64,000 bases of DNA, taken from IMG/VR virus record IMGVR_UViG_3300010397_000045, positions 9,000-72,999 of that record; one strand, given 5' to 3'. The position numbers and the translations under genes are program-made. Under the pieces are notes generated by a model, which saw only the letters and a program-made list of their open reading frames with translations, had not been told where the DNA came from and did no database searches. Below, piece after piece: positions 1,577-9,806 of this stretch (position 1 is its first letter; every line of letters starts with the position of its first letter). This DNA is from a virus.

Positions 1577-1825
1577 TTAACTCCTAGTTGGTTTCCAGGT
1601 CATTACCTGGACATGCTCATCATTGAAAGTTGGATCTATCGCACTCTCTGAATCTTCCCCACAAGCCTCCATGAGCTCACGCAGCTCTTGACACTGTTTT
1701 AGATATGCAGTCATGCTTTCGTCTGTGCGCCGCTGCGCCTCCACTACCTCACGCCGTGTAACACGCAAGCCAGTGCGGTGTAGCCCCAAATGATCGCGCA
1801 ACACCCGTTTTACGTAGTCGCTCAT
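1577..1825 (-). CDS. Hypothetical protein
   Basis: Start moved to ATG 1825 (MSDYVKR), giving a 4-bp overlap with the stop of 1822..2325. Confidence 0.6.
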   Translation of the reverse strand: MSDYVKRVLRDHLGLHRTGLRVTRREVVEAQRRTDESMTAYLKQCQELRELMEACGEDSESAIDPTFNDEHVQVMTWKPTRS

Positions 1826-2325
1826 TTGAGCCCCATCGCCCGCAGTTGCTCTCTCACAGATTCGCTGATAGCATCGATCTCCTCGCGCTTCCAGCAATCC
1901 TTGTCGGCACACGGTGGGCCGTCGTGATCGTCGTCGCATTTGACGGCAGGTTTATCCCAGTCGGCTACATGAGCTTGGATGCTGCGCTCCACGTTCGGCC
2001 GCAAGATCTCCATCAACATGGAGCCGGCAGGCATCCCATTCATTTGCCTGGTAAAATCCGTGAGCATCTTCTCAGGATCGCGCGTCTCGGCGTAGTGGCT
2101 CAACACGACAAGGGCCAACAACTCGTTCTGCTGGAGCTGTAATACGTGGGGTGTGAGCGCCTGACAGACCCAGTACATGACAGATGTCATGTTCTTCTCG
2201 AACATGTCCTCACGCCCGCGTTTGCGTGCCTCGACCAGTATTCCAAGCAACACCATAACGCGTCCCATCAACGGGCCATCAGCCCTGTCAACCTTGCCCG
2301 CGAACATTTCCTCTAATGTACTCAT
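1822..2325 (-). CDS. Hypothetical protein (167 aa)
   Basis: ORF track; GAGAGG RBS upstream. Confidence 0.7.
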   Translation of the reverse strand: MSTLEEMFAGKVDRADGPLMGRVMVLLGILVEARKRGREDMFEKNMTSVMYWVCQALTPHVLQLQQNELLALVVLSHYAETRDPEKMLTDFTRQMNGMPAGSMLMEILRPNVERSIQAHVADWDKPAVKCDDDHDGPPCADKDCWKREEIDAISESVREQLRAMGLK

Positions 2326-2446
2326 GACTGCAGACCTCTCGTGTTGTATTTAAAGAAGGAGCCCGCCCAACGCAGGAAGCCAGCGCTAAATCCGTGGCAC
2401 AGAATTCCAACAGCTTATCTGGGTTTCCCCCGTTTTTAACAGGGAC

Positions 2447-2506
2447 AACCTTGCTCACTTTCACCTTGCAGCCTTGCGTCAATTGAACCTTGCGCACTTT
2501 CACCTT
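2447..2506 (-). repeat. 21-nt direct repeat AAGGTGAAAGTG(C/A)GCAAGGTT, two copies, within an AAG-periodic tract
   Basis: Plus strand aaccttgctcactttcacctt (2447-2467) and aaccttgcgcactttcacctt (2486-2506), 20/21 identical. Confidence 0.85.
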
Positions 2507-2538
2507 TGAGCCTTGAGCCTCTTAAGTTGGACTTGCCA

Positions 2539-2625
2539 TGGTTGCTTGTGGAGGATTCGAACCTCCGAGCCTTGTTAAGGCAACACCCTTTCGGGCGCCG
2601 TGTCTACCAACTTCACCAACAAGCG
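2539..2625 (-). tRNA. tRNA-Leu-like element lacking a canonical anticodon loop (GAAA tetraloop instead), with encoded CCA
   Basis: CGCUUGU UG GUGAAGUUGGUAGACAC G GCGCCC-GAAA-GGGUGU U GCCUU-AAC-AAGGC UC GGAGG-UUCGAAU-CCUCC ACAAGCA A CCA: perfect T arm, Leu-type D arm, long variable arm, A73, C1:A72 mismatch. Confidence 0.8.
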
Positions 2626-2702
2626 TTTGACGACCGCATAACGCCGCGGTCAGCGTTCTGTCTACTTGGATTCTACTCTGCGTGTCGGGCATCGTAAAAA
2701 CT

Positions 2703-3251
2703 CTACTTCAACGTAATCGGCTGGTCTAGCCGACCCTCCAACAAATCCGTCGTCGCATTCACGATCTCCAAGTGCCCATCTATGATCGATGGCTCGCGGC
2801 GATACAGGTCCAACCGGCGGTCGCGCTCCTCCGGGTCCCAGTGCCGTACGATCTTCACCATCAGCGGATCGGCCCCAGGCGCCAGCTGCACCTGGCCCTC
2901 GCGCCGGTTACCATCACCGATGTCGCCCCACAGCCTCAACGCTAGCGGGGCCAGGTCCTTGCGGCGGTGAATCCACCCGGCAATCGTGTGAGTCACCTGC
3001 TTGCCATCCAGCTCTATCGTGACGTTGGTCAACAAGTTGGTTCGCTGAATCGCCAGGCGCAGATGCAGGATGCGCTTCAGCGTATCCTCATGGCTTTGAG
3101 TCCACTCCCGGATTTTCTGCTTCATGTCTTCGTACTTCGGCGTGTCGGTTGACAGGTTGGCGCAGTTGGCGGCAACCTTGGTCCGCAGGTCCGCCGCCTT
3201 TTCGGCCAGGTCCCGCAACTCTCTCATCGCCTGTATGATCTTCACCTTCAT
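2703..3251 (-). CDS. DIP1984/DUF6847-like helical protein (182 aa)
   Basis: MKVKIIQAMRELRDL... start, LRLAIQRTNLLT core, TIAGWIHRR and IDGHLEIVNATTDL end match the family pattern as remembered; GAGGAG RBS. Confidence 0.65.
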   Translation of the reverse strand: MKVKIIQAMRELRDLAEKAADLRTKVAANCANLSTDTPKYEDMKQKIREWTQSHEDTLKRILHLRLAIQRTNLLTNVTIELDGKQVTHTIAGWIHRRKDLAPLALRLWGDIGDGNRREGQVQLAPGADPLMVKIVRHWDPEERDRRLDLYRREPSIIDGHLEIVNATTDLLEGRLDQPITLK

Positions 3252-3466
3252 TCTCCTCGGGTTCGAATTGCCGCGGGTTAACCGCGCTTATCAGTATCAC
3301 CGCAAACACCAGGATGAGCATCGCCAGTCCAATCACTGGCAGGATGTCAGCCAGTTGTTTCATACCGTGGCGGGGTGCGGCCCGGACGGGCTGGACGGAA
3401 GTGGGTCTGCGTAAACTCCCGGTCCGGCTGGCCGAGTACGCTCGGGGCCGCACCCTACCTTTGAAA

Positions 3467-3688
3467 TCATGTTGGTATCTCCACCAGATATGCCACACCT
3501 GCGAATGGGTCAGACGTACCGACAGGTACCACGGACCACGTACGGCAATACATAGTACCTCGGATGAGCGACCGCCTCGCACCGTATAACTCGACGAGTC
3601 TGTGACCGGGGTACTTCGTCTGGCACACCTGGTCTGGAGGGTTGTCGTACAGTATCGCGTCCGGGTGGCACAACTCGAGCGTTCTCAT
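3467..3688 (-). CDS. Hypothetical protein
   Basis: ORF track; 4-bp overlap with 3685..4299. Confidence 0.5.
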   Translation of the reverse strand: MRTLELCHPDAILYDNPPDQVCQTKYPGHRLVELYGARRSLIRGTMYCRTWSVVPVGTSDPFAGVAYLVEIPT

Positions 3689-4299
3689 AACAGCCGCGTT
3701 CTATCGCCAGCAGCAACACGATCATCGCGATCGCTGCGAGTCTGTACATCCACATCGAGAACCCTCCCGGTTGCCTTGTCGAACCTCAATCCATGTGCAG
3801 GGCAGACCAACACGCCGCCAACTTCTTCGTACATCGCCTCCACGGGCGTACCCTTGTGTGGGCAGCGCCCGTTCATAATCGCCTGGCCACAATACCGATC
3901 GCGCAAGCGCACCTGCCACGGCACGATCGCAGGTCTGAGACAGACCATTAGCCGCGGGATGAGCGTGAGATATGGCAGGATATCGGCATCCATGCAGATG
4001 CTCGAGGTCTCGAGCCTGTTCGGACTGCCCAACCGGCGCAACTCACTGCGGTATAAGTCCTCCGGCACGAACTGCCAGTTGATGTGCGCGTGATGGCCTT
4101 TGAAGGCACCCGATGACGTGTTGAAGCTGTTGGGTATGAAACCCTCATCCACCTGGAACTCGTGCAACAACGGCAGCCAACCGTTAAAACCCTGGTAGTC
4201 CCTTAGGATATACGAGCCGCCCGACGGCGTCTGCTTGTCGAGCACCACGTTGAGCTGTAGGCACAACACGTTGTACTGCTTCCCCACTTCGTAACTCAT
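3685..4299 (-). CDS. Protein with a C-terminal Rieske [2Fe-2S]-type motif
   Basis: CPHKG...VLVCPAHGLRFDKATG is the Rieske CxH / CxxH signature; AGGAG RBS. Confidence 0.75.
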   Translation of the reverse strand: MSYEVGKQYNVLCLQLNVVLDKQTPSGGSYILRDYQGFNGWLPLLHEFQVDEGFIPNSFNTSSGAFKGHHAHINWQFVPEDLYRSELRRLGSPNRLETSSICMDADILPYLTLIPRLMVCLRPAIVPWQVRLRDRYCGQAIMNGRCPHKGTPVEAMYEEVGGVLVCPAHGLRFDKATGRVLDVDVQTRSDRDDRVAAGDRTRLL

Positions 4300-7802: not shown

Positions 7803-9806
7803 CTACTCCAGTGTGTTAGTTACAGTTGAGTCCATATGCGCGCTGCGCTCGGCATGGGATGCGCGCTCCCACTTATCGACATTGCGCATGGCGAACAGGA
7901 CGTCGATGACACCCCTCTTGCAGCGTGTTTTGGACAACTGTTTTATGTTGGGGTTACGCCGCAATGCGCGCGCCACTGCCACCAATGAAAACTCGCTTCT
8001 AGGGTTGTGCACCTGTAATAACGAGGTCAACTCTTTTACTGTCCACAGGTCGCGCTTCGACCCCATCACATAACCATCGAAGCCACCAACTAACTCACGC
8101 ACGGCGTAATCGATGAAAGAACCCGAGATGCCGATCATCCACGCTTTGGCGTCGGTCATGGGCGCAGCCCCGCGTGGGTCAAAGCCGTTCGTGTTGATAT
8201 GTAACAGGTAGTCGAAGATCGCCGCGGCATTGGTTTTGTTCTTGAACCACGGATCGTAGTTCTGCGTATACCAGGCTTCAGGGTGTATCTGGTCCGATAT
8301 CTCCCATACGAACCAGCGGCGGTCCTTGGCGTCGAGCGATAGCGCGTCGGGGTTGTTGGTAGTGAGGTAGATGTTGGCGCAGTCGCGCAGCTCGTATTCC
8401 ACCTGAAACTTCGCATTGATCGTTACATACTCCTGGGTGATGAGGTTGTTGAGGAACGCCACGTCCTCGCGCTTATCGCGCCCGGTTACCTCATCTCCCA
8501 GTATGAACTGCTTGTGCTTGGCCCACTCGTTGAACGAGTCGTGTATGTTCTGCGCTCTTATCCCCTTGAAGTTGTCCCCGTAGATGGGCCGCATCGTCTC
8601 GGCAAGGAGCGACTTGCCGACACCCTGCATGGTGGAGAACATCAACACACCGGTATAGAGCTTGACACCGGGATGTTGTAATGGGTAAGCTAGCCATTGG
8701 AGAAACCATTTGCGGTATCTACCATCTACATCAGCATGAAACACCTGGTCCAGAAGCTCCATGAAAGGGGTAACATCACCTTTTGCAGGTTTAACACCCC
8801 AACCCTTCCATACGTTGAAAGATCCGTCTGGTGGTGTTTCGGGTTGGCCTGGTGCGTACACCAGTGATTTAGCCGTGCGTTTACCAGGCCACTTGGACCA
8901 TTCTATAAATGTGTTGACCTGCTTCTGTTTGCCGTCCATGTCATACTTAACCATCGTACGATCCCCATAAGCGATCGTGGCAAGTGTCTGGAGCTTCGAA
9001 TACAACGTACGGCTGGGCAGGTGATACACAGCTACCTTGTCGGTTATAATACACAACTCTTTGTTCAGATTCTCCAAAGCCACCAGATCATCGAACGGAA
9101 CCGGTACCAGTTTATCAAAAGCCTCCCGGCCATTGGCGACCAGGTAGTCGTCGAGCCCGGCCTTCTCACCCGCCTTTAACGATGGCAGTCGTACGGCGAA
9201 TGGATGGCCACCATGATGACGTATTACACGTGCCAGTGCGTGCAGGGCATTATCAACATGGGGGTTGGGTACGGCATCATTGTCGAAACAGATCAGGATG
9301 CGGCGACCGTTCATGAAAGGCACCAGGCTATCAATCAACGTATGTTTCTGTCCTCGAGAGCCCCAACTCCATACACCGCCCAACCCTATACACGGCAGAC
9401 GTAGAAACTTGACAGCAGCAGCAGCTTTCTTCTCTCCTTCTGTAATGATGAGGTCAACCTTGGGGTCTGCTTTGACGTCGGCCCAAGTCCATTTACCGGC
9501 ACACAGTGTTGGTGGTGGGAAATAAGCGTGCACCCCTGTGCCCTTGGGTTGGGTGTACTTCCACAATTTACCGGTGCCTTTGTCAACAACCTCATCCGTG
9601 AATTTGTAGCGTGAAAAACAATTGACTTTACCCGTAAGGTCGAAATAGGGGATCTCGTACCCGGCAGCCTCCTGTTTTACGAGTTTCTTCATGGATGTCG
9701 GGGTCACCGGTCGTACACACATGTGCTTGGCATCCTTGGAATCCAGACCGGACCTGCTTAGATCCTTTAACATGGACTCGTAGACGGCCTGCTCGACGAC
9801 GGTCAT
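7803..9806 (-). CDS. Primase-helicase (N-terminal DUF3854-like Toprim domain, C-terminal DUF5906/SF3-like NTPase)
   Basis: IITEGEKKA, GLGGVWSW, ICFDND and GLDDYL Toprim motifs; QGVGKS Walker A, ILGDEV Walker B, TTNN and DRRW. Confidence 0.9.
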   Translation of the reverse strand: MTVVEQAVYESMLKDLSRSGLDSKDAKHMCVRPVTPTSMKKLVKQEAAGYEIPYFDLTGKVNCFSRYKFTDEVVDKGTGKLWKYTQPKGTGVHAYFPPPTLCAGKWTWADVKADPKVDLIITEGEKKAAAAVKFLRLPCIGLGGVWSWGSRGQKHTLIDSLVPFMNGRRILICFDNDAVPNPHVDNALHALARVIRHHGGHPFAVRLPSLKAGEKAGLDDYLVANGREAFDKLVPVPFDDLVALENLNKELCIITDKVAVYHLPSRTLYSKLQTLATIAYGDRTMVKYDMDGKQKQVNTFIEWSKWPGKRTAKSLVYAPGQPETPPDGSFNVWKGWGVKPAKGDVTPFMELLDQVFHADVDGRYRKWFLQWLAYPLQHPGVKLYTGVLMFSTMQGVGKSLLAETMRPIYGDNFKGIRAQNIHDSFNEWAKHKQFILGDEVTGRDKREDVAFLNNLITQEYVTINAKFQVEYELRDCANIYLTTNNPDALSLDAKDRRWFVWEISDQIHPEAWYTQNYDPWFKNKTNAAAIFDYLLHINTNGFDPRGAAPMTDAKAWMIGISGSFIDYAVRELVGGFDGYVMGSKRDLWTVKELTSLLQVHNPRSEFSLVAVARALRRNPNIKQLSKTRCKRGVIDVLFAMRNVDKWERASHAERSAHMDSTVTNTLE

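Follow-up and report, generated by a model that had tools for sequence, protein, structure and literature searches.

A stretch of 64,000 nucleotides (nt) from an IMG/VR virus (positions 9,000–72,999 of the 72,999-base record IMGVR_UViG_3300010397_000045; hereafter the window) encodes, on its minus strand, a protein of 182 amino acids (aa) resembling the DIP1984/DUF6847 family, followed by a structured RNA of about 335 nt. This RNA almost certainly represents a real RNA class linked to the gene. It is conserved and covaries across loci, keeps to the strand of the gene, is obligately linked to one protein subfamily and carries a modular insert. The best explanation, to which we assign a probability of roughly 0.55, is a pseudoknotted non-coding RNA of a new class that forms a two-part cassette with the DIP1984/DUF6847-like gene and, together with the encoded protein, a ribonucleoprotein.

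Large structured RNAs without an assigned function are uncommon, and they have repeatedly opened new biology. This RNA comes with a dedicated protein partner from an uncharacterised fold family, the sole solved member of which has no assigned function, and the cassette could offer a first handle on what DIP1984/DUF6847-like proteins do. The modular design of the RNA is clear, with a core, a plug-in tRNA slot and a periodic track, and the pair is compact enough to be made and imaged directly.

Conservation and covariation of the RNA core

The 182-aa gene ends with a TAG codon at 2705–2703, and 377 nt separate its open reading frame (ORF) from the next one, which starts at 2325. A sequence-only reading of the window had taken this gap to be organised and to hold a discrete structured RNA, and conservation and covariation across loci bear this out. 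Starting from 331 pattern matches in viral sequence, we confirmed 135 relatives of the gene and fetched the best 80 loci. Placed side by side, the stretches downstream of the gene share one architecture, in which the closing stem is followed by an A-rich 5′ motif that is conserved, then by a hairpin, a middle part that varies, a tract rich in AAGG and, finally, a conserved 3′ block with GGCUUCC at its end. From 29 loci we built an nhmmer profile of this block; it matches 76 of the 80 viral loci at E ≤ 1e-3, always on the strand of the gene. Three more loci (L013, L039 and L040) match at a relaxed setting with filters off, and the contig of L070 ends 188 nt past the gene, so that the RNA accompanies the gene in 79 of 79 loci with enough sequence. 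The proposed tie between RNA and protein gene, adjacent and on the same strand, is thereby upheld.

In the 76 loci, the RNA lies downstream of the gene in 66 and upstream in 10. Where the 5′ end of a downstream element could be placed, the closing stem mostly begins 0–20 nt past the stop codon, with distances above 150 nt in some loci; RNA and gene are presumably co-transcribed. Element length ranges from 256 to 442 nt across the family. Clustering of all ORFs in the loci revealed no other conserved neighbour gene: the gene's own family is present in 65 loci, the next cluster, an antisense overlap of the same gene, in 8, and every remaining cluster in at most 5.

The 3′-domain profile finds a single copy in the window (2361–2502, E 1.5e-12). 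It is a divergent member, scoring 42.7 bits compared with more than 100 for typical ones. Read 5′ to 3′ on the minus strand, it consists of a 13-nt stretch, an A-rich joiner, a hairpin, a tRNA-like element, the AAG sites, a small hairpin and GAAA; a 3′ region that is divergent comes next, before GGCUUCC, a complement to the initial 13-nt stretch and a U-rich tail. Paired helices are designated P, and the parts are as follows.

2703..3251, minus strand: DIP1984/DUF6847-like gene, 182 aa, predicted helical homodimer (ORF, profiles and AlphaFold2)
2359..2693, minus strand: whole structured RNA, about 335 nt, closing stem to closing stem (ends from helix P1)
2678..2690, minus strand: P1 5′ strand, with a conserved unpaired A at 2685 (pairs with 2361–2375)
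2674–2677, minus strand: A-rich joiner, shorter than the conserved A-rich run of the family
2667–2673, minus strand: P2 5′ strand (pairs with 2402–2409 in the fold)
2658..2661, minus strand: P3 5′ strand, only about 4 base pairs in this copy (homology to family helix 3; placed by eye)
2631..2652, minus strand: hairpin P4, 6-base-pair stem and 8-nt loop (fold; a hairpin with a conserved loop occupies the same position across loci)
2539..2625, minus strand: tRNA-like insert, 87 nt (ARAGORN, Rfam tRNA and fold)
2449..2524, minus strand: periodic track of (Y)AAG(G), with 5 and 4 sites on either side of a 16-nt gap (sequence and family statistics)
2428..2444, minus strand: optional hairpin Ph, just 5′ of the 3′ core (fold; in most aligned loci, absent in 6 of 22 in alignment A3)
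2402..2427, minus strand: GAAA joiner, Pa 5′ strand (2419–2422), Pb 5′ strand, and P3′ and P2′ strands in the Pa/Pb loop (pseudoknot)
2361..2383, minus strand: Pa 3′ strand, near-invariant GGCUUCC (2375–2381) and P1 3′ strand with a conserved GG bulge (2366–2367)
2347..2360, minus strand: U-rich tail after P1, possible 3′ end or terminator (terminator-like call at 2376–2362 with the tail)
2288..2503, minus strand: 71-aa ORF overlapping the track, not a gene (no family hits, not conserved)

The core is built from the closing stem P1, which has two parts around a conserved A opposite GG, from the long-range helices P2 and P3, and from a Pa/Pb hairpin whose loop holds the 3′ strands of P3 and P2, which creates a pseudoknot. 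Locus L025 served to derive this five-helix model, which we then projected on a plain and unfitted MAFFT alignment (A4) that holds 59 sequences, from the window and 58 loci. Nine elements whose 5′ end was not placed (L009, L012, L035, L043, L048, L050, L051, L073 and L080) and five near-duplicates (L007, L011, L023, L060 and L066) were left out.

Projected in this way, 82.6% of 2109 paired cells can form a pair, compared with 62.4% (standard deviation 0.6) in 500 shuffles, none of which reached the observed value. When the partners were slid by 1–3 columns, 35.7–53.8% were paired. The slid control, from which the model is likewise clearly separated, is the fairer one, because shuffling ignores relatedness. 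Of the 38 pairs, 34 change on both sides, with 515 double-change cells against 182 in shuffles and a covariation score of 0.539 against 0.203. All 15 pairs of P1 show double changes (82.7% paired), as do all 4 pairs of P2 (85.8%) and all 8 of P3 (69.4%), a region that MAFFT aligns poorly. For Pa and Pb together, 7 of 11 pairs change on both sides (88.6% paired), and four Pb pairs vary on one side only. G–U pairs are frequent (for example, AU 26 times and GU 19 times at one Pa pair); the structure is therefore read on the strand of the gene, since G–U pairs would be A–C mismatches on the opposite strand.

Almost all of the features first described for the window copy are present in the sequence. 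The two ends of the gap do pair (2690–2678 with 2375–2361), a pairing that a single-sequence fold recovers and that the double changes in P1 support across the family, and the hairpin at 2652–2631 is present at a conserved position. The putative GGG–GAAA–CCC hairpin fares differently: by homology, its G run pairs with 2444–2440, the GAAA is a conserved joiner and CCCAG is the 5′ strand of Pa. A U-rich tail lies 3′ of P1 in 30 of 60 elements, compared with 10 of 60 control windows.

Coding alternatives were tried and rejected. The 71-aa ORF at 2288..2503, which the sequence-only reading had singled out as the possible competing gene, has no Pfam or PHROG hit and is not conserved (best tblastn E 1.3 over 99 loci). 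For the AAG tract as a whole, all three frames are stopped in 23 of 60 tracts, and its period of 7–8 nt is not a multiple of three.

AAG track, tRNA slot and distribution of the cassette

The AAG-periodic tract noticed at 2524–2449 is a family-wide feature. The window track has nine AAG sites with spacings of 9, 8, 7, 8, 16, 8, 7 and 8 nt. Over 60 elements, 537 AAG triplets occur in 9,544 nt of tract, whereas 238 are expected from shuffles, and the commonest spacings are 7 nt (136 intervals) and 8 nt (111), those of 14–16 nt (99) corresponding to skipped sites. C or U is preferred before the triplet and G after it, and the second G is missing in 47%. The consensus is about 9–10 sites arranged as two half-tracts of 4–5 sites, with 5 + 4 in the window. 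The two window half-tracts (2447–2508, minus strand) are near-identical direct repeats of about 22 nt, which suggests recent duplication or homogenisation within this track. Readings of the AAGG sites as Shine–Dalgarno-like, CsrA-like or G-quadruplex elements were set aside, as the sites have no GGA or GGAGG core and nearly half of them no second G.

Between hairpin P4 and the track lies a slot that is occupied in the window by the tRNA-like cloverleaf recognised at the outset (2625–2539). ARAGORN calls it a 'tRNA-???' with a 2-base anticodon (aa), and Rfam tRNA (RF00005) scores 32.3 bits (E 1.9e-4), above the gathering cut-off of 29. It has an acceptor stem, a D arm, a long variable arm and a T arm, with A at the discriminator position; CCA is encoded, and C:A is the first acceptor pair. 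In the fold, a 7-base-pair stem capped with a GAAA tetraloop takes the place of the anticodon loop. With no seven-base anticodon loop and no three-base anticodon, the insert is a mimic and not a decoding tRNA. A closer viral relative, L002 (57% protein identity), has an anticodon-less design as well, with a different stem and tetraloop, which argues that loss of the anticodon loop is maintained rather than accidental.

Among the 64 elements with assigned ends, 30 carry an ARAGORN tRNA in the slot, 15 a T-arm only (the match in L019 is spurious) and 19 neither. Several slot tRNAs have an anticodon with A at the first position or one of 2 bases. In some of the T-arm-only inserts the parts are circularly permuted, with the T-arm first, then an acceptor-like stem and then the D-arm (L027 and L030; L056 and L063 by eye). 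On the Rfam YrlA model, the permuted inserts of L027 and L030 reach 43.7 and 34.5 bits, short of the cut-off (69), with only the insert covered. By eye, the inserts of L014, L025 and L044, which have no T-arm, resemble a D-arm closed by a tetraloop and, after it, a stem-loop of anticodon type whose loop has 7 bases; in that case, distinct tRNA parts would be retained in distinct lineages. Should the slot be functional, it would explain the oddly placed phage 'tRNAs' with impossible anticodons reported by gene finders.

In 41 of the 80 viral loci, ARAGORN finds a tRNA on the same strand in the 700 nt that follow the stop codon, usually 70–100 nt away and with very different anticodons. Two adjacent tRNAs (act and gat) stand shortly upstream of the 3′ core in L039 and L040, apparently in the slot, and the cassette heads arrays of 17 tRNAs in L035 (3594–5626) and 7 in L080. 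Stop-codon-reading anticodons occur in slot tRNAs of L060 (tca, 2406–2478) and L087 (tta, 3102–3177), and a tta tRNA lies just past the element in L045 (3918–3993); these stop-reading tRNAs could connect to stop-codon recoding in those phages. In L074, ARAGORN places a transfer-messenger RNA (tmRNA; 2306–2661, tag ANPDLALQAA*) directly upstream of the DIP1984-like gene, with the structured RNA downstream in the same locus.

A scan of cellular sequence, with one genome per species, yielded 19 loci with relatives of the gene. At 40% protein identity or above, the RNA is present on the strand of the gene in 11 of 11 loci from metagenome-assembled genomes (MAGs). Eight loci at 24–29% identity escape the 3′ profile, and a variant RNA is recognisable beside the gene: its closing stem covaries, its 5′ motif is A-rich, a hairpin separates two AAG half-tracts, and its 3′ motif is a related one. 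It was identified by motif in L093, L094, L095, L098, L099 and L100 and by eye in L097; L096 is cut at the gene. The flanks of homologues, which had been proposed as the place to look, thus hold a similar stem and repeat tract, also in this distant variant. The MAG contigs carry labels from many phyla, among them Acidobacteriota, Dehalococcoidales, Verrucomicrobiota, Planctomycetota-type lineages, Saccharibacteria and Synergistaceae.

The distant variant occurs in cellular-looking contexts in L098, L099 and L100. The neighbours in L100 are a dehydrogenase, a thioredoxin and an M20 peptidase, and L099 lies about 1.8 kb from a Cas3 HD gene. The contexts of L099 and L100 indicate that the cassette is not confined to phages.

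Searches of existing collections returned little. The gene was not matched in 50,697 cultured-phage records by tblastn of three members, nor was the RNA by blastn of the window RNA and the L025 3′ domain; tblastn of two members did not find the gene in 72,556 plasmids. As the sequence-only reading had recommended, we scanned the region (window positions 1800–3400) against Rfam 15, and tRNA was the sole family to match the element at E ≤ 10; ten further loci gave no GOLLD, ROOL or RNase P match at E ≤ 5. No RNA run was listed among the public sequencing runs that hold the element; those sharing at least half of its words were two runs labelled as soil-metagenome DNA. We found no description of this RNA among 8.1 million papers and 0.36 million preprints, searched by family name and by combination of features, and it could be among the unnamed viral candidate RNAs in the supplements of PMC10690425, which number 10,006 according to an excerpt of that paper. 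Judged by these comparisons, the RNA class is new and was not described before.

The wider window encodes portal, head protease, tail sheath and tape-measure proteins, and the source is therefore a myovirus-like tailed phage. The window also has a leftward block of small genes, one of which is a primase. Two genes upstream of the cassette, a 204-aa ORF (3685–4299, minus strand) ends in a Rieske [2Fe-2S] domain (E 2.9e-7), an unusual feature for a phage early region. A weak Rfam match to the Glutamine-II riboswitch at 3350–3400 (minus strand; 17.2 bits against a cut-off of 33, E 0.23) is probably due to chance. The single minus-strand promoter-like match, at 2698..2670 within the 5′ end of the element, was dropped, because shuffles yield as much (2 found against a shuffle mean of 0.9).

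The protein and the interpretation of the cassette

The 182-aa protein matches Pfam DUF6847 (PF20935) with 16.3 bits and NCBIfam DIP1984_fam (NF038048) with 26.1 bits. Both matches are weak but full-length and fall below the respective cut-offs of 27 and 70; a precomputed PF20935 hit is present on some homologues. Eighty homologues of about 170 aa were collected at E ≤ 0.001 among 214 candidates, nearly all metagenomic, and a profile search of 1.84 billion representatives gave 746, 375 and 141 clusters (50% identity) at E ≤ 1e-3, 1e-10 and 1e-30, respectively.

An AlphaFold2 model from 79 sequences has a predicted local distance difference test score (pLDDT) of 92.7 and shows four long helices and two small beta elements. 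The sole Foldseek match in the PDB at E ≤ 0.001 is 3kdq, an uncharacterised Corynebacterium diphtheriae protein (E 4.2e-4, probability 1.00, template modelling (TM) scores 0.55/0.64), and the 182-aa protein has the fold of this solved member. By eye, its family also shares motifs with canonical DUF6847 proteins. A fold search of BFVD matched uncharacterised phage proteins throughout; those from isolated phages belong to Aeromonas phage LAh_9, Cronobacter phage vB_CsaP_009, Vibrio phage Vp_R1 and Acinetobacter phages ME3 and PhT2. Searched by sequence, solved structures gave designed coiled coils only (E about 0.3); the clusters from the Protein Atlas were all either unnamed or labelled DUF6847, 'septicolysin', DIP1984 or Gp157 and carried no function, and the PADLOC defence library had no match below E 0.003. 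The label 'septicolysin' of DIP1984/DUF6847 proteins was met only as an annotation in genome papers. Deinococcus radiodurans, one of our control genomes, has a Pfam DUF6847 match above the cut-off and is a cultivable candidate for the canonical, RNA-less branch.

Two-copy modelling of the protein scored 0.79, compared with 0.00 for the best of 3 controls. In a benchmark, 20 of 30 proteins whose solved structure is a pair of one chain reached this mark, as did 1 of 23 whose structure is a single chain. Contact agreement between runs was at least 82%, and pLDDT in the partner at least 88. The same residues lie at the interface in both copies, so that the protein is predicted to be a symmetric homodimer and not a ring; this pass may reflect likeness to 3kdq, because 3kdq was solved with several chains. 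Basic residues are conserved along helix 1 (positions 4, 10, 13, 18 and 25) and at 96–98.

On the explanation that we favour, the RNA would be made on the transcript of the gene and would fold into a scaffold through P1–P3 and the Pa/Pb pseudoknot. The homodimer, with a basic stripe on its first long helix, would bind the RNA, probably in several copies on the two half-tracts, to give a ribonucleoprotein, and its two-fold symmetry would suit the two-part track. Direct binding of the RNA by the protein is probable, and assignment of the AAG track as the binding site is tentative, with somewhat less than even odds. Canonical slot tRNAs would be excised by RNase P and 3′ processing, with the two RNA halves still joined by P1–P3. 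Anticodon-less or permuted inserts, such as that in the window, would stay attached and display a tRNA elbow, possibly offering host tRNA-binding machinery a handle or a decoy. We consider it unlikely that the cassette plays a tRNA-directed part in takeover or counter-defence.

Several observations weigh against this explanation. The most conserved stretch of the protein is the acidic C-terminal helix (E153, D158, E162, N165, T168 and D169), which falls outside the predicted dimer interface; an acidic conserved face of this kind would suit contact with another protein or catalysis better than RNA binding, and the median isoelectric point of the family is just 7.9. Five canonical DUF6847 genes (121–176 bits), from 201 Synergistota genomes, have no adjoining AAG track or similar RNA, and the fold therefore does not need the RNA. 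The fold energy of the window copy alone is unremarkable (z = −0.60), so that the case for the RNA rests on comparison and not on fold energy. Half of the elements have no U-rich tail after P1. Finally, 19 of the 64 elements lack any T-arm, from which it follows that the tRNA-like handle is not essential to core function.

A more ambitious account, which we regard as unlikely, is a mobile ribonucleoprotein of phages and some bacteria, in which DIP1984-like dimers coat the AAGG track and the slot presents tRNAs or their mimics for tRNA-centred takeover or counter-defence. The slot tRNAs and mimics, whether anticodon-less, permuted or of suppressor type, would be interchangeable, and the elbow would engage, decoy or redirect anticodon nucleases, RNase P, modification enzymes or the ribosome. 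If true, a mobile tRNA-displaying ribonucleoprotein would be a device without a described counterpart.

Unlikely to a closely similar degree is an RNA that works essentially alone in the manner of GOLLD and ROOL: strongly expressed, it would serve as a scaffold or multimer for phage tRNAs that it carries or goes along with, and the protein would only assist, for example as a chaperone, in processing or in regulation. The phage-borne, ornate pseudoknotted fold fits this account, as do the tRNA inside a variable linker in 30 of 64 elements, the tRNA arrays that follow the element in L035 (17) and L080 (7), and the acidic conserved face of the protein. However, the gene linkage of 79/79 evaluable loci persists to 24–29% protein identity, whereas ROOL has no known partner in the excerpted source; the Rfam GOLLD and ROOL models are unmatched in the window (E ≤ 10) and in ten loci (E ≤ 5); and a periodic, conserved, unpaired track would resemble a protein-binding array rather than a tertiary contact.

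We consider improbable a regulatory or toxin–antidote-like cassette, in which the RNA sequesters or controls the protein through repeated sites, or the reverse. The module is stand-alone and two-part with unrelated neighbours, occurs in phages and also amid housekeeping genes in a MAG (L100), lies near a Cas3 HD gene in L099, and has short repeats in its RNA; canonical DUF6847 proteins occur without the RNA, so that the protein may have an activity of its own. Set against this, the RNA is downstream of the gene in 66 of 76 loci, an order that does not favour antidote excess, and its 7–8 nt repeats are far below the units of type III antitoxins, which span tens of nt. No nuclease-like match was obtained for the protein, which is modelled as a helical bundle, PADLOC yields nothing below E 0.003, and simple sequestration needs neither a large pseudoknotted core nor a tRNA slot.

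Very improbable is a part that acts in cis and not in trans, be it a stabiliser or terminator in the 3′ untranslated region of the mRNA or a tRNA gene with conserved processing flanks. Such a part would account for elements that begin 0–20 nt after the stop codon in most loci, for the U-rich tail after P1 in 30 of 60 and for the tRNA embedded in about half of the elements, but not for the 10 loci with the RNA upstream of the gene, those with the RNA more than 150 nt away or the 19 of 64 elements without a T-arm, and neither a terminator nor a tRNA flank would call for five covarying helices with a pseudoknot and a periodic track of 70 nt.

The faintest prospect, already largely refuted, is a bacterial-type Y RNA of the YrlA family acting with host Ro60/Rsr: the closing stem, the tRNA-like module and the sub-threshold YrlA scores of the permuted L027 and L030 inserts speak for it, but the 73-kb virus has no TROVE gene (control genomes were positive), the window has no YrlA match at E ≤ 10, the L027 and L030 matches cover the insert only and stay below 69 bits, and Y RNAs of 80–130 nt encoded beside Ro60 (excerpt of PMC4201824) differ from an RNA of about 335 nt beside a different protein.

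Comparison with known systems

The sequence-only reading had likened the window RNA to YrlA while noting no Ro60/Rsr gene in the window. That absence extends to the whole virus, as Ro60/TROVE (PF05731) has 0 matches in the 72,999-base record, with D. radiodurans and Bacteroides thetaiotaomicron as positive controls. The resemblance itself stands only in part: YrlA (RF02553) matches two loci below the cut-off, in their inserts, leaving 8 of 10 tested loci and the window (E ≤ 10) unmatched, and the window RNA is not a Y RNA. The two systems have in common a modular RNA adjoining a protein gene, a closing stem and a tRNA-like module with T and D arms, and the permuted order of the L027 and L030 inserts (L056 and L063 by eye) recalls YrlA. 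An excerpt of Chen et al. 2014 (PMC4201824) describes Y RNAs as 80–130 nt and encoded next to Ro60, and Mycobacterium smegmatis YrlA as cleaved by RNase P and receiving CCA, which is the processing that we propose for canonical inserts. Y RNAs also have a long stem that carries the Ro60-binding site. They differ in the protein, here a predicted helical DIP1984-like dimer of about 170 aa and no Ro60/TROVE; in the pseudoknotted core and periodic AAG track, which are not features of Y RNAs; and in the tRNA-like part, which is dispensable here (absent in 19 of 64).

Other RNA classes were considered and set aside. For tmRNA, ARAGORN finds none in the window, and Rfam finds only an 18-nt T-arm fragment in L027. 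The Pa region bears a likeness to the P4 region of RNase P RNA; Rfam gave no RNase P match, and the extra G–C pair needed does not covary (by eye, for example, GGG/A in L037, L044, L046 and L057). Type III toxin–antitoxin systems of the ToxIN kind have tandem RNA repeats of tens of nt upstream of an endoribonuclease toxin gene. The period of 7–8 nt, the downstream RNA in 66 of 76 loci and the helical protein with no nuclease match led us to reject that assignment.

For the protein, the closest known relative is DIP1984/DUF6847 (3kdq), with the same fold, weak full-length profile matches and, by eye, motifs in common. The family studied here differs in scoring under both curated cut-offs and in its RNA, which canonical members in five Synergistota genomes lack.

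For the track, the nearest analogues are oligomeric proteins that read evenly spaced RNA triplets, namely TRAP, which recognises GAG/UAG repeats, and HutP, which recognises UAG repeats. About ten conserved purine triplets at fixed spacing in unpaired RNA are similar to these and suggest one site per subunit. The cassette differs in its 7–8 nt spacing, its two half-tracts, a predicted symmetric dimer in place of a ring and a track set in a large scaffold RNA rather than an mRNA leader, and Foldseek shows no similarity of fold.

For the RNA as a whole, the closest parallels are GOLLD and ROOL, which an excerpt of a preprint describes as phage- or prophage-encoded, pseudoknotted and tRNA-associated, with tRNAs sometimes within a variable linker (GOLLD). 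Like them, as that excerpt portrays them, the RNA is phage-borne, has elaborate pseudoknots and lies beside or around tRNA genes. It is half to a third of their size, matches neither Rfam model, and differs further in the protein gene that obligately accompanies it and in its single-stranded track of periodic sites. As a protein-linked case beside GOLLD and ROOL, the cassette may help to explain why ornate phage RNAs accompany tRNAs.

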